A stretch of 14,460 bases of DNA. Source: a virus. Lineage: Duplodnaviria; Heunggongvirae; Uroviricota; Caudoviricetes. The stretch is from the IMG/VR virus record IMGVR_UViG_2645727821_000004, positions 1 through 14,460 of that record, one strand, 5' to 3'. The notes beneath the pieces are model-generated. The model did no database searches, was not told the DNA's origin, and saw only the letters and a program-made list of their open reading frames with translations. A program made the translations under genes and the position numbers. Shown here one piece after another: positions 1 through 9,153 of this stretch (positions are counted from its first letter, which is position 1; every line of letters begins with the position of its first letter).

Positions 1-79
1 TGTGAACACTGACTGCAATATCAACTGGCTCTCCGGAAACAAGAAAAACTGTCAGAACAAGTGCAAATGCTGTATTCAT
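1..79 (-). CDS. ydfD: YdfD-like small membrane/lysis protein, N-terminal part only; gene continues past the window start
   Basis: Minus-strand ATG at 79-77 overlaps the dicB stop (ATGA). In-window translation MNTAFALVLTVFLVSGEPVDIAVSVH is a hydrophobic N-terminus matching my recollection of Qin YdfD. Partial ORF, not in the six-frame track. Confidence 0.5.
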   Translation of the reverse strand, partial: MNTAFALVLTVFLVSGEPVDIAVSVH

Positions 80-264
80 TGCCAGCATCCTTTTTGTATC
101 GGACGTAAACGGGCCAGCATTGAAAGAATGCATATTTTATTTAATAACTCCCGTTCGTGTTTTCTCTTGTTAATGGCATCTTCAGTAAATACAGGATTAC
201 TGATAGTGACACCAATTTCAAAACAACCTTCAGACGTATTAACGTTTGGTAATAACGTTTTCAT
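76..264 (-). CDS. dicB: DicB-like cell-division inhibitor (62 aa)
   Basis: ATG at 264-262 inside track ORF 76..369 gives MKTLLPNVNTSEGCFEIGVTISNPVFTEDAINKRK..., near-identical to recalled E. coli DicB. Lies directly downstream of DicF, the canonical dicF-dicB order. Confidence 0.75.
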   Translation of the reverse strand: MKTLLPNVNTSEGCFEIGVTISNPVFTEDAINKRKHERELLNKICILSMLARLRPIQKGCWQ

Positions 265-438
265 TATCGCGCCCTCAACAATGAGTTTTGTGATGCGGTG
301 CCTGGTGCCTCCAGGTGACGTTAACCAGTTAACAATTAACACCGGATACAGAGAATCCACCCATAACACTGTTTTTGGTTTTAACTGTTCCGCGTGCGCT
401 TAGCCGCATTCACCGCATCACAAAATTCACTTTAAAAA

Positions 439-491
439 GGGCGGCAGAGCAGTCACGGAGTAAAACTGATACCGCCAAACGTCACCAGAAA
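439..491 (-). ncRNA. dicF: DicF small RNA (53 nt), Hfq-dependent ftsZ-targeting sRNA of the dicB operon
   Basis: Minus-strand sequence TTTCTGGTGACGTTTGGCGGTATCAGTTTTACTCCGTGACTGCTCTGCCGCCC matches the DicF sequence as I recall it, followed by TTTTT (plus 434-438). No ORF on that strand; dicB follows. Confidence 0.8.
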
Positions 492-1037
492 ATTGATAAC
501 AGAGGGCGTTGCAGCGGGGTTGTCACTTAAGCGTATGGTCAACCTGACAACCCGGTGTTCTCAACGGGGAAGGAATAACCCCGCCATACTTACCGTCGCG
601 CCATTTCGCGGAGTGCCACAACCGGAAGCGCACGGTCGAATTAAATTTAACGACACCGTACAGAGAGACCAATTTCGCCGTGCACTTTCGCGTTATGCCC
701 TGGCTTTTCAGGGATATATCCTTTCAGTAAACTGTCAGTACCGGATTCTTATCCGTGTCCGGCGCACGACCACACGTGACAGCGTGTTGGCCTCCATTTT
801 TAACCCAGAACCTCAATGGAGGATAAAATGCCAAACAAAAAAAGAAATCCGCTTATTGAAAAACAGATTGAATGCCTGGTAAATCAACTCAAGCAATCAG
901 GGTTATTAAAAACTCATTCAGAGTTGAGGCTCACAGAATCAGCATTCGACGATAAATTAAATAATGTCCTTTATAATGGCATTATTGATTTTAATCGTTC
1001 TTTTGGTCGCCGCGGCCCTGCTGGTGTTTCCTTATAA

Positions 1038-1676
1038 TTACCAGTCAATCCAGAGCGGACCGTGTTCAGCGTAAATATAACTGTACACATCCAGATTATA
1101 TTTGTGGTCTGTTAAGAACAGGCCGCAAATACATGCCGAAGCTTCCAGGGCAGCGGCTCTGTTACTGAATAACCATGTAGCAACATTCCAGCGTTTTTCT
1201 GCATCCCAGTCTTTCTCAAGGCCTGATACCATGAAGAAACCGTTAGTGTTGCCATCAAATAATTCTGTTTCCAGATTTTTAAGCAATGCCTGATGGACTC
1301 TTGCCAGGTATTCCGCCGGAATTTCGCCACGAATTCTGATGAGATTGTCATAAACAAACATGTTCCCCGCATATGGCGATTTTTCTTTCTTGTTTTTTAA
1401 ACCAGCATCATGAGCAAACTGTTCAATTTCTTCTTCCGTTGGTTTCGTATTGATGTTTTGCGCTGTCGTTTCTGCAATTTTCTTTGCCACACTCTCTGAG
1501 TCGTGTTTATTTACAGACGCACAGAAATACAATCCGGTAAACGCATCGCGCACATTACGAGCCATATTATCAGTGTCTTTTTTCGTTACCGATTCCAATG
1601 CAAGTTCGTTCAGACGATGACGAAGTGTGTGTGCTGCAATCTCCTGGATTGAAGTAGGTAAATCTTTAAATTCCAT
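1038..1676 (-). CDS. hypothetical protein (212 aa), unknown function, in repressor-controlled leftward operon
   Basis: Track ORF 1038..1688. ATG at 1676-1674 is preferred because GAGG sits 6 nt upstream on the minus strand; the ATG at 1688 has no SD. Soluble protein, no motif I recognise. Confidence 0.55.
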   Translation of the reverse strand: MEFKDLPTSIQEIAAHTLRHRLNELALESVTKKDTDNMARNVRDAFTGLYFCASVNKHDSESVAKKIAETTAQNINTKPTEEEIEQFAHDAGLKNKKEKSPYAGNMFVYDNLIRIRGEIPAEYLARVHQALLKNLETELFDGNTNGFFMVSGLEKDWDAEKRWNVATWLFSNRAAALEASACICGLFLTDHKYNLDVYSYIYAEHGPLWIDW

Positions 1677-1687
1677 CGTCAACCTCA

Positions 1688-1840
1688 TCAGTCAGAGTTT
1701 CTTGCTAACCAGCGATGCGCGCCAGCTTCGGTTTTAAACGTTTTACTTTTGGTATACGTCATCGCGGTGAACGTGCCGTCCTGGTTGGGAAACACGCCGT
1801 ACACCAGAGATTCGTTGTTGCCAAGATCGATAGTATCCAT
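1688..1840 (-). CDS. small protein (50 aa), first gene of leftward operon; YdfA-like by position
   Basis: Track ORF 1688..1921. Internal ATG at 1840-1838 has an AGG-N5 SD and gives MDTIDLGNNESLVYGVFPNQDGTFTAMTYTKSKTFKTEAGAHRWLARNSD, matching the expected ~51-aa YdfA size. The 77-aa start at 1921 also has a GAGG SD and cannot be excluded. Confidence 0.5.
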   Translation of the reverse strand: MDTIDLGNNESLVYGVFPNQDGTFTAMTYTKSKTFKTEAGAHRWLARNSD

Positions 1841-2022
1841 GCTGACCTCATTTCCCCTTAACGCCGGGGTAGCGGAACAAAAACCTGCTGCATAGTTATT
1901 AAAGTTGAACCCTGCCGTCATGTTCTTACGCCTCGGGCTGGCTACTTAACCCCTGACCACTGCCTGGTAACTCGAAGTATTGCCCTGCGTTCTGTGGGGC
2001 GGGGTGGGTTGGCATGAAAGGA

Positions 2023-2063
2023 AGGATACCCATGGGTATTTAAAAAGTAAATACCCATGGGTA
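2023..2063 (-). promoter_or_regulatory. Leftward early promoter candidate (PL/PdicB-like) with two identical 12-bp palindromic operators
   Basis: Perfect palindrome TACCCATGGGTA at 2027-2038 and 2052-2063 (25-bp centre spacing). Minus-strand -35 TTTACT (plus 2046-2051) and -10 TATCCT (plus 2023-2028) with 17-bp spacer; the -10 overlaps operator 1. Confidence 0.5.
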
Positions 2064-2107
2064 ATTTTTTTTGATGTATCTTAACCGGTGACTGATTGTT
2101 TGGTGAG

Positions 2108-2527
2108 TTATGATGCGTTTTGTGCTTTCTTTTTACGGATTTCTTCGTAGATCATATTGTAATACTGTTTTTTCTCTTCAAGAGTTTTTAATAAGTTATC
2201 CGCTTCACTTTCTGGTAGTTCGTCTAAGAGATCTAAAAAAATACGTTGTCGTGGCGTTAGAACCCTTGTTTCATAATTGGAGGCTGTGTTCGTTGATGAT
2301 GAAACGATACCATCCATCCATCCCCGAGGTAACCCAAAGGACTCTTCTATAATCTCCACCATATCATCTGCGATCCGTTTTTTTCCTTTTTTCCCCTCTG
2401 GGTACAACATTCTTGATACATAAGAAGGCTCGCGACCGATCTTTCTGGCCACGTTAACCGCTTTACCATCGCATTTCTCATCACGAATTTTGATGAGTTG
2501 TTGTCGTCTAAATTCATATTTGTCCAT
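2108..2527 (-). CDS. Prophage immunity repressor, HTH, DicA/RacR-like; no S24 peptidase domain
   Basis: Track ORF 2108..2569 (TTG start would read through the operators); ATG at 2527-2525 preferred, 139 aa. HTH-like AVNVARKIGREPSYVSRML. C-terminus with LPESEADNLL resembles recalled DicA (ALPESEQD). Divergent from the cro-like gene across an operator-rich 100-bp region. Confidence 0.7.
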   Translation of the reverse strand: MDKYEFRRQQLIKIRDEKCDGKAVNVARKIGREPSYVSRMLYPEGKKGKKRIADDMVEIIEESFGLPRGWMDGIVSSSTNTASNYETRVLTPRQRIFLDLLDELPESEADNLLKTLEEKKQYYNMIYEEIRKKKAQNAS

Positions 2528-2548
2528 AGGTAAATAATAGATGCGATT

Positions 2549-2603
2549 ACCGCAAGGTAAACAACCCAAGGGTATTGACTTTTGTTTACCCGCAGGTATT
2601 CTT
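2549..2603 (+). promoter_or_regulatory. Rightward early promoter (PR-like) with three operator 12-mers (OR1-3 analogues)
   Basis: TACC-N4-GGTA 12-mers at 2549-2560, 2563-2574 and 2587-2598. -35 TTGACT at 2575-2580, -10 TATTCT at 2597-2602 (16-bp spacer). AAGGAG SD at 2617-2622 precedes the cro-like ATG at 2628. Confidence 0.55.
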
Positions 2604-2627
2604 TGCTGTGTTTACTAAGGAGTAGCT

Positions 2628-2909
2628 ATGGAAGAATTAAGAATATTTCTCAATTCTCTTTCGTCAGATGAACAGCGTATGTTTGCATGTGAGTGTGGTA
2701 CTAGCATCGGTTATCTAAGAAAGGCATTGAGTAAAGGTCAAGTGTTAGGGGCATCGTTATGTGTCCTTATTGAGCGAGCCAGTAATGGTGAAGTTACACG
2801 TCAGCAACTAAGGCCTTTTGATTGGATGAATATTTGGCCTGAGCTGGAAGATACCAAAACGTTAACACAACCACTTTCTAGGAGCTTGATTCATGAAAAT
2901 CAGGCATGA
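2628..2909 (+). CDS. Cro-like HTH regulator (YdaS/DicC-type)
   Basis: 93 aa with strong SD; HTH-like CECGTSIGYLRKALSKG; a ...QLRPFDW motif resembles recalled YdaS. First gene rightward of the operators. Confidence 0.65.
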   Translation: MEELRIFLNSLSSDEQRMFACECGTSIGYLRKALSKGQVLGASLCVLIERASNGEVTRQQLRPFDWMNIWPELEDTKTLTQPLSRSLIHENQA

Positions 2910-3318
2910 ACACATCCGCATGGCGATGAATGCATGGGCGCGTCCTGATGGTGAAAAAGTTCCTGCGGCTGAGATAACCAGGGCGTATTTCGAACTGGGT
3001 ATGACGTTCCCGGAACTGTACGACGACAGCCACCCAGAAGCCCTGGCGCGTAATACCCAGAAAATTTTCCGCTGGGTAGAGAAAGACACCCCTGATGCAG
3101 TTGAAAAAATTCAGGCGTTGTTACCGGCGATCGAAAAGGCAATGCCGCCTCTGCTGGTGGCCAGAATGCGCAGCCACAGTTCAGCTTATTTTCGGGAGCT
3201 GGTGGAGATGCGGGAACGACTGGTGAGAGACGCTGATGATTTTGTCGCGGTGGCAATAGCTGGCTTCAACCAGATCAACCGTGGTGGCCCGGCCGGAAAT
3301 GCTGTGGCTGTGCATTGA
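2893..3318 (+). CDS. YdaT-like protein (CII functional analogue / toxic regulator family)
   Basis: 141 aa; AGGAG SD at 2880-2884. Starts MKIRHEHI and ends ...VH, with KIQALLPAI motif, as in recalled Rac YdaT. Overlaps the cro-like gene by 17 nt. Confidence 0.65.
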   Translation: MKIRHEHIRMAMNAWARPDGEKVPAAEITRAYFELGMTFPELYDDSHPEALARNTQKIFRWVEKDTPDAVEKIQALLPAIEKAMPPLLVARMRSHSSAYFRELVEMRERLVRDADDFVAVAIAGFNQINRGGPAGNAVAVH

Positions 3319-3389
3319 TCGGCAATATTCATACCGGATCTCTTTCGGTAATACGTGATTAAAAAGATTCGGTATCTGAAGAGGTTAGT

Positions 3390-4460
3390 ATGGCTAATGC
3401 CTGGCTCAGATTATGGCATGACATGCCAAATGACCCCAAGTGGCGAACCATTGCCCGGGTGTCAGGTCAGCCAATTGCAACAGTGATGGCTGTGTATATC
3501 CACCTCCTGGTGAGCGCGTCACGAAATGTCACGCGAGGTCACGTTGATGTCACGACCGAGGATTTGGCAAGCGCGCTCGATGTGACAGAAGAGGTGATTG
3601 ATTCAATTTTGCAGGCAATGCAGGGGCGGGTTCTGAAGGGGGATCTTATCACCGGATGGGAAAAACGCCAGGTACTGAAGGAGGATAACGGTAACGTTTC
3701 GCCAACCGCAAAATCCCCGGCAGAGCGCAAGAGAGCGCAGCGGGAGAGGGAAAGGCAGCGGGAGCAAAATGGCGACTGTCACGGCGTGTCACGAAATGTC
3801 ACGCACATGTCACGACGAGTCACGACAGATAAAGATACAGATAAAGATACAGATCAAGAAGATCAAAACACTATGGTTCATGGCGAGAAAAACGCCACGA
3901 ACCTGACAGGGGATGTTCAGACCGTCAATCCTGGTCAGCCGGCAGGCACGACACCGGAAGCCGATTCAGCGTATGCGCTGAAAGCCGATTCGGGCGCTGT
4001 GCAGCAGGCGATGGTCGCCGGACCGGAGAGATCACACCAACCGCAGCAGCCTGAAGCCGATTCCGCCCTTCAGCGGGAAGCCGATCGGGTAGTCCCGGAA
4101 AACACCGGGCAGCCTGTGGGACGAGTGGATTACCCGGACGGGTTCGAACAGGTCTGGCGGGAATATCCGCTGCGTGCCGGGGCAAATCCGAAGAAATCCG
4201 CGTTCAGTGCCTGGAAGGCCAGGTTACGCGAGGGGGTGCCACCGCAGGTCATGCTGGATGGTGTGAGGCGTTACGCGAGGTACCTGGCGGCGACCGGGAA
4301 AGCGGGAACGGAATTTGTTCAGCGGGCGACAACGTTTTTTGGACCTGACCGGAATTTTGAAAACCCCTGGTTGCTCCCGACTGGCGGGACGAACAACCAG
4401 CGTTGTGTGAATCATATTTCCGAACCGGATACCGAAATTCCACCAGGTTTCAGGGGGTGA
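3390..4460 (+). CDS. Replication initiator (lambda O-like / YdaU-like) containing an internal origin
   Basis: 356 aa; GAAGAGG SD. Lies immediately upstream of the DnaC-like gene; iteron arrays and an AT-rich tract inside the coding sequence (next two features) parallel lambda ori within O. Confidence 0.7.
   Translation: MANAWLRLWHDMPNDPKWRTIARVSGQPIATVMAVYIHLLVSASRNVTRGHVDVTTEDLASALDVTEEVIDSILQAMQGRVLKGDLITGWEKRQVLKEDNGNVSPTAKSPAERKRAQRERERQREQNGDCHGVSRNVTHMSRRVTTDKDTDKDTDQEDQNTMVHGEKNATNLTGDVQTVNPGQPAGTTPEADSAYALKADSGAVQQAMVAGPERSHQPQQPEADSALQREADRVVPENTGQPVGRVDYPDGFEQVWREYPLRAGANPKKSAFSAWKARLREGVPPQVMLDGVRRYARYLAATGKAGTEFVQRATTFFGPDRNFENPWLLPTGGTNNQRCVNHISEPDTEIPPGFRG
3518..3554. repeat. 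Iteron array 1: four GTCACG repeats at 10-11 bp periodicity
   Basis: GTCACG at 3518, 3528, 3538 and 3549, read directly from the sequence. Confidence 0.7.
3778..3866. repeat. Iteron array 2 (five GTCACG repeats) plus adjacent AT-rich tandem repeats with two GATC sites; putative replication origin
   Basis: GTCACG at 3778, 3788, 3798, 3809 and 3819. Tandem AGATAAAGATAC at 3827-3838 and 3839-3850. GATC at 3852-3855 and 3861-3864. Confidence 0.65.
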
Positions 4461-4466
4461 AGGATT

Positions 4467-5213
4467 ATGAAAAATATAGCGACAGGAGGCGTTCTTGAAC
4501 GTATCCGCAAGCTGGCACCACAGCATGTAACCGCGCCGTACCGGACGGCAGAAGAGTGGCGTGAGTGGCAACTTGCGGAAGGCCAGAAACGTTGCGAGGA
4601 GATCAACCGTCAGAATCGTCAGTTGCGGGTGGAAAAAATTCTGAATCGCTCCGGTATCCAGCCGTTGCACCGCAAATGTTCGTTTGCGAATTACCGGGTG
4701 CAGAACGACGGCCAGCGATATGCGCTGAGCCAGGCAAAATCCATCGCGGACGTACTGATAACCGGATGCACAAATTTCGTGTTCAGCGGTAAGCCGGGTA
4801 CCGGAAAAAATCACCTGGCAGCCGCCATTGGTAATCATCTTCTGGAGAAAGGTCGCAGCGTGATTGTGGTCACGGTGGCTGATGTGATGCTGGCGCTACA
4901 CGGCAGCTACGACAACAAAAACTCAGGCGAAAAATTTTTGCAGGGTTTGTGTGACGTTGACCTGCTGGTTCTGGATGAGATTGGCATGCAGCGTGATACG
5001 CGCAACGAACAGGTCACACTGAACCAGATCGTCGATCGCAGAACAGCCGCGATGCGCAGTGTCGGGCTGCTGACGAACCTGAACCATACCGCAATGAGCA
5101 CCCTGCTTGGCTGGCGCGTGATGGACCGCATGACCATGAACGGTGGGCGCTGGGTGAATTTTAACTGGGAGAGCTGGCGTCCGAATGTCGGTCAGCCAGG
5201 AATTGAAAAGTAA
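4467..5213 (+). CDS. DnaC-like AAA+ helicase loader (phage replication protein P analogue, YdaV-like)
   Basis: 248 aa. Walker A GKPGTGKNHLA and Walker B LLVLDEIG. Start 7 nt after the initiator stop, with GGTGAAGGA SD. Confidence 0.85.
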   Translation: MKNIATGGVLERIRKLAPQHVTAPYRTAEEWREWQLAEGQKRCEEINRQNRQLRVEKILNRSGIQPLHRKCSFANYRVQNDGQRYALSQAKSIADVLITGCTNFVFSGKPGTGKNHLAAAIGNHLLEKGRSVIVVTVADVMLALHGSYDNKNSGEKFLQGLCDVDLLVLDEIGMQRDTRNEQVTLNQIVDRRTAAMRSVGLLTNLNHTAMSTLLGWRVMDRMTMNGGRWVNFNWESWRPNVGQPGIEK

Positions 5214-5237
5214 TTTTTATCGGGGAGAAAAAATTTA

Positions 5238-6008
5238 ATGGAAACCGTTTTAGACGCACTGAAAGCGATGGGAAAAGCCACGTCGGTAGAACTGGCTACG
5301 CGACTTGATATCAGTCGTGAAGAAGTGCTGAACGAGCTGTGGGAACTGAAAAAGGCTGGCTTCGTTGATAAAAGCGTATACACCTGGCGTGTGGCTGGCG
5401 AAGGTGAATCCGGGGTAGCCGAAGAGCAGCCAGCACAATCTGAAGCACAGGATGTGCTAACCAGGGAGGTCGAACGAAAAGTTACCGCTGACATGATGAT
5501 TGAGTTTATCAGTCAGGAGGGGGCTAAAACGTGTGAGGAGCTGGCGGGTAAGTTCGGTGTCAGTACTCGCAAGGTTGCTTCCACGCTGGCGGTAGTAACC
5601 GCAACGGGGCGGCTGGCACGCGTTAATCAGAACGGTAAATTTCGTTACTGCATACCGGGCGATAATTTACCAGCAGAGCCGAAAGCTGCATCGGTAACAG
5701 AAGCTGATGGTAAATCCTTTCCTCTGCCATCAGGTGTTGCGTTACCAGTACAGGAGGCTGCAACACAGGAAGATATTAAAACAGAAACGGCGGCGGACAT
5801 TGTGCAGTCGCTACCACCGTTTACCGAAACGCAAGCGGATGACCTGGTTTTATCATCGCTGCATATGGCAAACCGCGAGCTGCGTCGGGCGAAAAGTTAT
5901 GTCCAGAAGTGGGAGCGTGTCTGCGCCGCGCTGCGGGAGCTGAACAAGCACCGGGATATTGTTCGACTGATTGTCGATTCCTCCAGTCGTATTGTGTCGG
6001 AAAAGTGA
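5238..6008 (+). CDS. hypothetical protein with two winged-helix-like modules and an acidic linker
   Basis: 256 aa; GGGAGA SD. wHTH-like segments [28 protein letters not shown] and [29 protein letters not shown]. Confidence 0.55.
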
Positions 6009-8801: not shown

Positions 8802-8955
8802 TTTTATATTGGCGAGGTGACGAGAGTTAAGTAGAATTGCTGCGGGTGCTTGAGGCTATCTGCCTCGGGCATGAACAGCAACGGCAGATAGATAAAAGCC
8901 CCAGTTAACATTACGCGTCCTGCAAGACGCTTAACATTAATCTGAGGCCCAATCT

Positions 8956-9153
8956 ATGCTTCACAAACGTAGGTTAGCCTCTTACGAGCCGAAAGGCAAG
9001 GAGAAGCAGGCTATGAAGCAGCAAAAGGCGATGTTAATCGCCCTGATCGTCATCTGTTTAACCGTCATAGTGACGGCACTGGTAACGAGGAAAGACCTCT
9101 GCGAGGTACGAATCCGAACCGGCCAGACGGAGGTCGCTGTCTTCACAGCTTAA
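8956..9153 (+). CDS. mok-like reading frame (in-frame N-terminal extension of hok)
   Basis: ATG at 8956 in frame with hok, as in recalled chromosomal mokC/hokC. 65-aa track ORF. Confidence 0.4.
   Translation: MLHKRRLASYEPKGKEKQAMKQQKAMLIALIVICLTVIVTALVTRKDLCEVRIRTGQTEVAVFTA
9013..9153 (+). CDS. hok: Hok/Gef-family type I toxin (HokD/RelF-like), apparently truncated by a premature stop (46 aa)
   Basis: MKQQKAMLIALIVICLTVIVTALVTRKDLCEVRIRTGQTEVAVFTA matches recalled HokD up to a TAA at 9151-9153. In-frame continuation GAA CCT GAG GAG TAA encodes EPEE-stop, the canonical Hok C-terminus. Confidence 0.8.
   Translation: MKQQKAMLIALIVICLTVIVTALVTRKDLCEVRIRTGQTEVAVFTA

Follow-up and report, generated by a model that had tools for sequence, protein, structure and literature searches.

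Sequence analysis of a DicF/DicB/YdfD cassette at the distal end of a predicted repressor-controlled leftward operon in a lambdoid E. coli prophage

Results

The cell division cassette and its operon

The stretch of phage DNA analysed here, hereafter the window, is 14,460 nt long, and its left end carries dicF, dicB and the start of ydfD. From 1840 down to ydfD all genes lie on the minus strand, save for one embedded antisense ORF (828..1037). The features of this leftward segment are as follows.

1..79, minus strand: ydfD (lysis protein of the DUF1482 family), its first 26 codons (79..2) before the gene is cut at the window edge; recognised by identity with K-12
76..264, minus strand: dicB, 62-aa cell division inhibitor, ATG at 264; Pfam PF05358 and phrog_1251
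265..438, minus strand: structured dicF-dicB spacer, several stems enclosed by a 15-bp helix; MFE -59.8 kcal/mol, z -3.4
439..491, minus strand: dicF, 53-nt antisense sRNA with an intrinsic terminator stem at 440-476; RF00039 and identity with K-12
492..775, minus strand: non-coding leader 5' of dicF, conserved with Qin; alignment to K-12
828..1037, plus strand: 69-aa ORF, a hypothetical protein in relatives, antisense within the leftward operon; phrog_4274 (1-69/69, E 4e-50)
1038..1688, minus strand: 216-aa ORF at the ydfB/ydfC position of Qin; phrog_2151 (E 6e-145)
1688..1840, minus strand: ydfA/ydaF-like DUF1391 gene, first of the leftward operon; Pfam PF07151 (E 1e-28)
1841..2016, minus strand: leader of the leftward operon, of which 1925-2016 is common to K-12 Rac

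The first-pass annotation had placed DicF at 439-491, and the covariance model search bears this out, coordinates included: Rfam RF00039 matches 490..439 on the minus strand over the whole model (1-52/52), scoring 76.7 bits where the gathering score is 48 (E 8e-16), and the consensus structure fits perfectly, with no non-canonical pairs flagged. All 53 nucleotides of the interval are identical to the annotated K-12 dicF. The terminator hairpin (476..440, -15.1 kcal/mol) has the tail CUUUUUAA, its U-run occupying 434-438, so that the molecule has the 3' stem-loop, U-run and single-stranded 5' region expected of the RF00039 structure. DicF lies 5' of dicB in the leftward operon of a prophage and is preceded by a conserved precursor leader, as seen from alignment with Qin and with phages Tritos and mEp460. 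That leader is 97% identical to K-12 over 492-628 and 76% identical over 629-775, with the homology to Qin stopping near 775; the 492-628 segment is the counterpart of the 137 nt by which the 190-nt RNase III product known from K-12 extends 5' of DicF. The folding z score of the region 425-830 is -3.3. In K-12, DicF is processed out of the dicBp transcript (PMC10448788). A crude duplex energy for DicF against the K-12 ftsZ leader came to -38.5 kcal/mol across the RBS and AUG, a value equalled by 51 of 500 shuffles; it is from identity with K-12 DicF, hence the same pairing potential, that we infer pairing of this DicF with ftsZ.

As had been anticipated, DicF escapes annotation based on ORFs, the RefSeq relatives that we examined listing no RNA gene at this position. 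DicF is explicitly annotated in phage Tritos. One phage record has a spurious ORF annotated over dicF.

The spacer between dicF and dicB (265..438) is 96.6% identical to K-12, and its 287-427 portion gives a sub-threshold match to Rfam STnc100 (36.9 bits, gathering score 47). The 62-aa ORF beyond it had been read as DicB, and alignment to Pfam PF05358 upholds that reading over the whole length (1-62/62) with a score of 126.9 bits (cutoff 27, E 2.3e-37). Identity with the K-12 protein is 56/62 residues (90%), the six substitutions clustering in the C-terminal 27 residues. The program-made ORF list gives a GTG-extended frame of 97 aa (76..369); the Pfam alignment favours the 62-aa form. The K-12 DicB protein inhibits Z-ring formation in a MinC-dependent manner (PMC10448788). 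The start of ydfD overlaps the dicB stop in an ATGA at 76-79. YdfD had also been called here, and the call stands for the N-terminus, where 24 of the first 26 residues are identical to K-12; the gene runs off the left edge, which leaves the remaining 37 codons of the 63-aa protein beyond the window. Typical of YdfD are a hydrophobic segment near the N-terminus and translation coupled to that of dicB through the ATGA. Relatives annotate a DUF1482/YdfD gene at this position.

Upstream of the cassette, the 69-aa antisense ORF is preceded by a strong GGAGG Shine-Dalgarno sequence, and convergent transcription could attenuate read-through within the operon. The 216-aa ORF (1038..1688) has no Pfam or NCBIfam match. 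The open frame of the DUF1391 gene reaches upstream to 1921, and relatives annotate the 50-aa form. A hairpin scan of the minus strand from 2016 to 491 found no strong terminator; the two hairpins that it did turn up are weak and have poor U-tracts. The 1925-2016 part of the operon leader is common to Rac and to the majority of lambdoid prophages of E. coli, irrespective of immunity type: when 1925-2630 was used as query, the first ~90 nt matched in 3449 of 5426 complete E. coli genomes, and the homology can be read directly in the racR-ydaG intergenic region of Rac. We considered whether 1915-2017 might be a structured RNA of the put or nut kind and set the idea aside, there being no Rfam match and a folding z score of +0.9, no better than shuffles.

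The repressor and its predicted operators

The control region and the genes that diverge from it comprise the following.

2023..2051, minus strand: predicted PL-like promoter, -35 TTTACT (2051..2046), 17-nt spacer, -10 TATCCT (2028..2023); promoter scan
2108..2527, minus strand: immunity repressor, 139 aa; phrog_5736 transcriptional regulator (E 5e-70)
2548..2602, no strand assigned: OR region, with operator-like sites at 2548-2559, 2563-2574 and 2587-2598; motif scan
2575..2602, plus strand: PR, TTGACT (2575-2580), 16-nt spacer, TATTCT (2597-2602); promoter scan
2628-2909, plus strand: Cro-like gene of the YdaS family; Pfam and PHROGs
2893-3318, plus strand: CII-like gene of the YdaT family; Pfam and PHROGs
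3390-4460, plus strand: replication initiator with TGTCACG iterons; Pfam and PHROGs (356/356)
4467-5213, plus strand: DnaC-like helicase loader; Pfam and PHROGs

Two perfect 12-bp TACCCATGGGTA palindromes, OL1 (2027-2038) and OL2 (2052-2063), have centres 25 bp apart; taken as a pair they are a perfect inverted repeat of 16 bp whose arms enclose a 5-nt loop. Only 0.08 occurrences of the relaxed motif TACC-N4-GGTA would be expected in the window. There are 4, an enrichment well beyond chance, and every one is in the intergenic DNA on either side of the repressor gene. Among five relatives, operator changes fall in the central N4 and the half-sites are kept. It had been claimed that two perfect operators cover the leftward promoter, and the claim holds up: TTTACT-17-TATCCT, the sole candidate with at least 8/12 matches on the minus strand of 1925-2110, is bracketed and overlapped by both palindromes. 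Its hexamers are weak (8/12) and are missing from a stricter consensus scan, and they align column for column with those of K-12 dicBp (TTGACC-17-TAATCT) and of the Rac leftward promoter (TTGACA-17-TATAGT), the Rac homology starting directly past the -10. PL and PR share one layout, in which one operator abuts the -35 and another overlaps the -10 by 2 nt. Judged by its sequence, then, this is a control region of the lambdoid PL/dicBp type, with predicted operators over the leftward promoter and the same motif at PR/PRM. The position and symmetry of the palindromes suggest that they are bound by the repressor. A PRM-like TTTACC-16-TATTAT lies at 2561..2534, and the predicted repressor mRNA is leaderless.

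Two further matches to the OL pair can be put aside. The perfect hairpin accounts for the Rfam matches to mir-2041 at 2027-2063, which are artefacts. The one match among species-representative genomes is in a MAG contig, where the palindrome resembles an operator but is unrelated and the flanks show no homology; it is uninformative on host range.

What sort of repressor is encoded at 2108..2527? It resembles the C-terminus of DicA over residues 84-136 (BLASTP E 1e-7, 33% identity) and differs from DicA in the N-terminal DNA-binding part; the match to NCBIfam NF007257 (E 2.5e-5) is below the cutoff. No Pfam domain was found at E<0.01, and the N-terminal domain has no Pfam HTH match. RacR, suggested by the YdaS/YdaT neighbours, is rejected, as BLASTP finds no similarity; a search of solved structures returned insignificant winged-helix matches (ADAR Z-alpha, E 0.08 or worse). 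The 139-aa protein has no recognisable autocleavage domain and so does not look like a RecA-cleavable repressor of the λ CI kind, which has an S24 peptidase domain and an Ala-Gly site. It groups with the short DicA/Gifsy-type repressors, an assignment still compatible with the wider lambdoid leftward-operon class. DicA is a non-cleavable repressor (PMC10448788). With a short repressor that lacks a cleavage domain, SOS induction is not assured, and loss of repression by the classical RecA route is unlikely.

Rightward genes and replication functions

Every ORF examined in the window matches a PHROG or Pfam profile over its full length, including the initiator, the DnaC-like loader, RusA and Q. 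The TGTCACG iterons are within the initiator gene, at 3517-3543 and 3777-3824. The prophage had been described in the first-pass annotation as apparently replication-competent; this is borne out for the replication module, in which the initiator with its iterons, the loader and Q are intact, while the integrase, recombination, lysis and structural genes are beyond the window. Between hok and the DUF968 gene, the position occupied by the Rem-type antirepressor in Qin, no similarity to Rem was found.

Comparison with Qin, Rac and sequenced phages

The closest counterpart is prophage Qin of K-12 (dicA/dicC - dicBp - ydfABC - dicF - dicB - ydfDE). Its dicF is identical; identity is 98% over the 190-nt precursor region, 93% for dicB DNA (90% for the protein) and 96% for the start of ydfD. 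As here, the first gene of the operon is of the DUF1391 family, and the genes keep the same order and orientation with respect to those of a CI-like repressor and a divergent Cro-like protein. Qin differs in immunity specificity: only the C-terminal ~50 repressor residues are shared with DicA, and the operators here are TACCCATGGGTA rather than DicA sites. In place of the ydfB and ydfC genes of Qin there are the 216-aa ORF and the antisense 69-aa ORF. Moreover, the YdaS/YdaT-type rightward genes lead here into a replication module that is intact, in contrast to the heavily deleted Qin, and no Rem homologue was found at the Rem position.

Rac (racR - ydaG - ydaF - sieB - kilS - kilR) shares with our prophage a leader that is near-identical from directly past the -10, a DUF1391 gene near the operon start, a gene on the opposite strand inside the operon, YdaS/YdaT rightward genes, and a distal operon end that carries an sRNA and a small FtsZ-directed division inhibitor. 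Rac differs in that RacR is unrelated to the repressor described here, and in carrying KilR with KilS instead of DicB with DicF.

Among 5426 complete E. coli genomes, 4651 (~86%) carry the 500-bp cassette, with a median of 2 copies. It is also found in the same position in sequenced phages, among them Tritos (OV696610), mEp460_ev081 (LR597641) and vB_EcoS-640R1, where it is 96-98% identical; Tritos and mEp460_ev081 have the same order, int-xis-exo-ydfD-dicB-dicF-...-CI-Cro-replication. The immunity regions of these phages differ from the one here, the Tritos repressor matching in its 3' part only, and the whole 1925-2630 immunity segment is in no phage record.

Discussion

We think it highly probable that the left end of the window is the distal end of a PL-type early operon of a lambdoid E. 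coli prophage, carrying a canonical dicBF module under repressor control. In a lysogen, the 139-aa repressor (2527..2108) would bind both TACCCATGGGTA operators; with OL1 in the spacer and -10 of the promoter at about 2051..2023, and OL2 abutting the -35, bound repressor would block leftward transcription. Upon removal of repressor, a single transcript of ~2 kb would be made, reading through the ydfA-like gene, the 216-aa ORF, the leader, dicF, dicB and ydfD. RNase III and RNase E would then release 190-nt and 53-nt DicF species, as in K-12, and transcription would partly end at the DicF terminator and partly read on into dicB-ydfD. DicF would repress ftsZ translation by antisense pairing, DicB would recruit MinC so that Z-ring assembly is blocked, and early phage gene expression would thereby be coupled to division arrest.

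For the transcription start, repression by the 139-aa protein, RNA processing and filamentation, we infer the behaviour of this operon from that of Qin, whose repressor wiring is already established by experiment. In K-12, DicA represses dicBp, deletion of dicA gives a 22-fold induction, and derepression leads to filamentation that is dependent on DicF and DicB (PMC10448788). That filamentation would be co-induced on loss of repressor here is supported by this behaviour of the homologous operon.

Does the cassette serve the phage at all? An alternative, to which we give somewhat less than an even chance, is that the prophage is cryptic and decaying, and that the host keeps the cassette for phage exclusion (DicB-MinC-ManXYZ) and for metabolic control (DicF). 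The literature does present dicBF as a trait of cryptic prophages (PMC5069750, PMC6832061), and its frequency in E. coli genomes, often in multiple copies, would fit such a role; moreover, in the closest relative in a complete genome, in strain OkiPb01680, the DNA just to the left of ydfD contains IS insertions, and of the genes there the integrase is truncated and the exonuclease frameshifted. On the other hand, the full-length profile matches of the ORFs examined, from the initiator (356/356) and loader to RusA and Q, speak against decay within the window, and the same cassette is found in phage genomes that have an integrase and an excisionase.

A different question is whether the OL pair is an operator in the first place. 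It might mainly, or additionally, be an intrinsic terminator that ends the PRM transcript 45 nt past the stop codon and spares the cell the toxic leftward operon, its operator role being secondary. We consider this unlikely. The 16-bp inverted repeat does scan as a terminator on both strands, the hairpin in minus-strand RNA comes to -24.5 kcal/mol, and the sole natural substitution seen, TACCCATAGGTA in two relatives, leaves a G.U pair in the minus-strand RNA and an A.C mismatch on the plus strand. But two copies of a perfect palindrome make an inverted repeat automatically, so that operators explain 12 of the 16 bp; TACC-N4-GGTA recurs three times at PR/PRM without a hairpin; and the register of the operators with respect to the -35 and -10 is equal at both promoters. 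In addition, as a U-tract the minus-strand tail UCCUUCCUUU is poor, and the T-run on the plus strand is not kept among relatives. The two roles are of course compatible rather than mutually exclusive, and OL1-OL2 may conceivably do both, though we hold this, too, to be unlikely: the pair would be a DNA operator at PL and an RNA hairpin that terminates or stalls the PRM transcript, insulating ydfA-dicF-dicB-ydfD, next downstream on that strand, from the steady repressor transcription of the lysogen. If true, one sequence would give both repression and insulation of a lethal cassette.

It is very improbable that the cassette is autonomous, with DicF and/or dicB driven mainly by an internal promoter, in the leader or in the dicF-dicB spacer, that answers to host signals (stationary phase, oxygen, urea) and not to the repressor. 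In its favour are a promoter upstream of dicB put forward in one earlier study, the accumulation of DicF in stationary phase (PMC10448788), a degree of conservation that is higher in leader and spacer than in the adjoining genes, and the position of the antisense ORF between the cassette and the genes upstream. Against it, the minus strand from 2016 to 76 has no sigma-70-like site at the scan threshold, and in K-12 no internal promoter came to light by primer extension, northern blots or RT-PCR, and DicF was traced to the dicBp transcript (PMC10448788).

The favoured reading, a dicBF module at the end of a repressor-controlled early operon, has a familiar precedent. The λ PL operon follows the same logic, with kil, a division inhibitor, at the distal end of a leftward operon under repressor control. 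Further points of likeness are palindromic operators ~24-25 bp apart over the promoter, a leaderless PRM mRNA and origin iterons inside the initiator gene. Kil is without sequence homology to DicB or DicF, and λ has three OL sites against two here. Unlike in λ, we know of no N/nut antitermination system recognisable in this prophage.

The cassette itself is the well-known DicF/DicB/YdfD module, in the dicBF arrangement of Qin combined with a different immunity specificity, and as such is already known. Further roles of dicBF, in phage exclusion, metabolism and EHEC virulence, are established as well, and ties to cryptic prophages are on record (PMC5069750, PMC6832061). The locus has little significance beyond its right annotation, where flagging DicF is useful housekeeping, as ORF-based pipelines miss it. 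A 2016 paper found no dicBF in phage genome databases and left its role for a developing phage as a question (PMC5069750); sequenced phages now carry the cassette, in contrast to that absence. The present copy, which has its own immunity specificity and is located beside an intact-looking replication and antitermination module, would be a reasonable model for the role of dicBF in a phage that is still able to develop.

The dicBF cassette

The left end of the window carries, on the minus strand, a cell-division-inhibitor cassette closely related to that of Qin, the cryptic prophage of E. coli K-12. The first-pass annotation had named its members as DicF, DicB and YdfD, and all three calls were right.

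Features of the cassette
490..439, minus: DicF (RF00039), 76.7 bits (gathering score 48), E 8e-16, whole model aligned (1-52 of 52), no irregular base pairs
264..76, minus: dicB, ATG at 264, 62 codons, Pfam PF05358 residues 1-62, E 2.3e-37
79 to window edge, minus: 5' part of ydfD (ATG at 79), 26 codons; ATGA at 76-79 overlaps the dicB stop

A scan of the entire window at Rfam gathering thresholds gave two matches, DicF and a downstream sok antitoxin RNA. In a three-way alignment of the window, Qin of K-12 and the closest complete-genome relative, the 53 nt at 439-491 are identical to annotated K-12 dicF. The DicB product shares 56 of its 62 residues with K-12 DicB; a mechanical ORF list gives a longer frame of 97 aa with a GTG start, and the 62-aa form is favored by the PF05358 profile match and by the way relatives are annotated. 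Only the first 40% of ydfD lies in the window, and 24 of the 26 N-terminal residues are identical to K-12 YdfD. In the phage record mEp460_ev081 (4576-5030), dicB carries an annotated 5' extension (285 nt) and the dicF position is overlain by a 'hypothetical protein' on the plus strand, an example of how an sRNA is hidden by ORF-only annotation.

How far does the resemblance to Qin extend? Homology runs from window position 1 to about 775.

Identity to K-12 along the window
76-264, dicB coding DNA: 93%
265-438, dicF-dicB spacer: 96.6%
439-491, dicF: 100%
492-628, 137 nt 5' of dicF: 97%
629-775, next 150 nt of leader: 76%
776-1040: 40%, no real homology

Together, dicF and the 137 nt directly 5' of it correspond to the 190-nt RNase III product of K-12 (PMC10448788). 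The minus-strand spacer folds strongly (z -3.4) and is closed by a 15-bp helix, UUUUGUGAUGCGGUG/CACCGCAUCACAAAA, in which the two changes between K-12 and the window both still pair as G.U; 287-427 gives a sub-threshold match to Rfam STnc100 (36.9 bits; gathering score 47). The structure might serve as a substrate for RNase III or regulate dicB translation.

Upstream of 775, the ydfC and ydfB of Qin are replaced by two other ORFs, of 69 and 216 aa.

Genes between the leftward promoter and dicF
1840..1688, minus: DUF1391 gene, YdfA/YdaF family, first of the leftward series
1688..1038, minus: 216-aa ORF, phrog_2151 (function unknown)
828-1037, plus: 69-aa ORF, phrog_4274 (function unknown), strong GGAGG Shine-Dalgarno

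The 69-aa ORF is antisense within the leftward operon and lies tail to tail with the 216-aa ORF. Another plus-strand frame, 964-1074, would encode 36 very hydrophobic codons, MSFIMALLILIVLLVAAALLVFPYNYQSIQSGPCSA, with no obvious ribosome-binding site.

The repressor and rightward genes

Immunity and early genes
2527..2108, minus: immunity repressor, 139 aa, PHROGs transcriptional regulator phrog_5736, E 5e-70
2628-2909, rightward, divergent from the repressor: Cro-like YdaS-family protein
2893-3318, rightward: CII-like YdaT-family protein
Rightward: replication initiator, 356 aa, matching its PHROG profile end to end
Rightward, after the initiator: DnaC-like helicase loader

The repressor is not λ-CI-like. 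Pfam finds no domain in it at E<0.01; over its last ~50 residues it is similar to the C-terminus of DicA, the Qin repressor (33% identity, E 1e-7), and the NCBIfam DicA model gives E 2.5e-5, below its cutoff. The N-terminal part has no Pfam match and an insignificant similarity to PDB winged-helix structures. As judged from these comparisons, the protein appears to be a chimera in the evolutionary sense, with a DicA-like C-terminus and a different N-terminal DNA-binding part. The YdaS and YdaT neighbors raised RacR, the repressor of the K-12 cryptic prophage Rac, as a candidate identity, which was rejected, as the proteins are unrelated. DicA is a short repressor that lacks a RecA cleavage site and is not induced by mitomycin C (PMC10448788). 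Between hok and the DUF968 gene, the position that corresponds to that of the Qin antirepressor gene rem, no Rem homologue was found. RefSeq relatives label the repressor a 'hypothetical protein', though the immunity type is present in 822 complete E. coli genomes.

Proposed operators and promoters

In the 187-bp gap between the repressor stop codon and the leftward genes lie two perfect copies of the palindrome TACCCATGGGTA, OL1 and OL2, at 2027-2038 and 2052-2063, their centers 25 bp apart. In its relaxed form, TACC-N4-GGTA, the motif is present four times in the 14.5 kb, where shuffled sequence predicts 0.08, and all four copies fall within the two intergenic regions flanking the repressor gene. 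A fifth, slightly degenerate operator-like site, AACCCAAGGGTA, is found at 2563-2574.

Predicted promoters
2575-2602, rightward: PR, TTGACT 2575-2580, 16-nt spacer, TATTCT 2597-2602 (consensus scan)
2561..2534: PRM-like promoter (consensus scan)
2051..2023, minus: PL-like promoter, -35 TTTACT 2051..2046, 17-nt spacer, -10 TATCCT 2028..2023

The -10 of the PRM-like promoter ends seven bases before the repressor ATG, which implies a leaderless mRNA. The PL-like site is the sole minus-strand candidate scoring at least 8/12 on the leftward side of the repressor gene. At PR, the -35 has an operator-like site directly beside it and the -10 shares two bases with another; the layout at PL is the same, with OL2 abutting the -35 and OL1 overlapping the -10 by two bases. 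The PL-like hexamers align column for column with TTGACC-17-TAATCT of the K-12 dicA-ydfA intergenic region, and also with TTGACA-17-TATAGT of the Rac prophage, where near-identity to the window starts directly downstream of the -10 and runs on through the leader. Among five same-immunity relatives, the sites vary at their central four positions and keep the TACC/GGTA half-sites, a pattern that would be expected of protein-binding operators. The earlier proposal that two operators cover the leftward promoter thus holds up, for a promoter that we infer rather than map.

The minus-strand leader, 1925-2016, which begins right after the -10 and is nearly identical in Rac, has matches in 3449 of 5426 E. 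coli genomes regardless of immunity type, so that a sharp mosaic boundary falls at the predicted transcription start. It lacks unusual structure (z +0.9) and has no Rfam match. In a MAG contig labelled uncultured alphaproteobacterium (CAWHOZ010000022.1, 1503-1539), GAGTACCCATGGGTACTC occurs twice at the same 25-bp spacing; the sequence around the pair is not homologous to the window, and the pair seems to be an operator pair of independent origin with the same core palindrome.

Might the OL pair act as RNA? With their inner flanks (2027-2063), OL1 and OL2 make a perfect inverted repeat of 16 bp around a 5-nt loop, terminator-like on both strands; on the plus strand the hairpin is followed by T8. 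In a secondary role, the hairpin could end the repressor's own transcript, insulating it from the toxic operon: on the minus-strand RNA it has a predicted stability of -24.5 kcal/mol and lies 45 nt past the repressor stop codon, and the sole natural substitution seen, in OL1 of two relatives, remains a G.U pair on that strand's RNA only. However, 12 of the 16 pairs are an automatic consequence of two copies of one palindrome, and the recurrence of the motif at PR/PRM, where the hairpin is absent, argues that operator function is primary.

Operon continuity and repression

With the operators taken as primarily repressor-binding sites, is the cassette joined to PL? A permissive search of the minus strand for hairpins followed by U-tracts, from the inferred start (~2016) to dicF, gave two terminator candidates, both weak and poor in their U-tracts; no convincing terminator comes before that of DicF itself (476..440, -15.1 kcal/mol, tail CUUUUUAA). 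An autonomous internal promoter driving the cassette is improbable, as the minus strand from 2016 to 76 has no sigma-70-like site at the scan threshold and northern blots, primer extension and RT-PCR found none in K-12 (PMC10448788). The operon matches that of K-12 in both respects, and by the same methods K-12 transcripts from dicBp, the Qin leftward promoter, end at the DicF terminator or continue through dicB-ydfD (PMC10448788). In K-12, DicA represses dicBp; deletion of dicA gives 22-fold induction, and Rem gives 165-fold induction with filamentation that depends on DicF and DicB (PMC10448788). The prediction that repressor loss would co-induce division arrest with early phage genes is, by analogy, established K-12 behavior extended to a homologous operon whose repressor differs.

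Replication functions and mosaicism

The description of the prophage as replication-competent exceeds the data: the replication genes are full length and iterons are present, but integrase, recombination, lysis and structural genes lie outside the window, and decay of the left arm in the best complete-genome relative speaks against it. The element may be either a working phage or a domesticated remnant. The initiator gene contains TGTCACG iteron clusters at 3517-3543 and 3777-3824, with ~10-bp spacing, and the second is followed at 3825-3848 by two tandem copies of the AT-rich 12-mer ACAGATAAAGAT; from these repeats, the initiator gene appears to contain a λ-style origin. RusA and Q, like the helicase loader, are full length. 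In the nin-like region, 8844-9153 (plus strand) is a hok/sok type I toxin-antitoxin locus that corresponds in position to hokD in Qin; sok scores 107.6 bits in Rfam (gathering score 59), and the Hok/Gef family ORF spans 8956-9153.

The left arm has met different fates in relatives with the same immunity region. In the best complete-genome relative, OkiPb01680 (1-5800), IS3 and IS66 elements lie just beyond ydfD, with a truncated integrase and a frameshifted exonuclease. In E. coli ES6 (1146-1982), IS1 truncates the DUF1391 gene and dicBF is gone, leaving xisR/intR.

The 500-bp left-end region has matches in 4651 of the 5426 complete E. coli genomes, at a median of two places per genome and a maximum of nine, and in 3776 genomes at least 80% of its length is covered by a match. 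Multiple dicBF copies in O157:H7 prophages and four expressed DicF orthologues are already on record (PMC5069750; PMC10448788). In 2016, no DicF or DicB matches were found in ~2,000 phage genomes (PMC5069750); 38 phage records now match the region and eight cover all 500 bp, including mEp460_ev081 and Tritos, both with the order int-xis-exonuclease-ydfD-dicB-dicF-...-CI-Cro-replication. DicF is annotated in the Tritos record. The immunity segment, 1925-2630, is found nearly complete in 822 E. coli genomes and in no phage record. The window as a whole is a mosaic, of which any one complete genome covers at most 71%.

The observation of the cassette is therefore confirmed, and its interpretation as a repressor-controlled unit is supported, by way of a putative promoter. 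The feature itself is not new: it is a standard dicBF module with a PL-type promoter under repressor control, set apart from the K-12 paradigm only by its immunity specificity and by the genes of unknown function between promoter and dicF.
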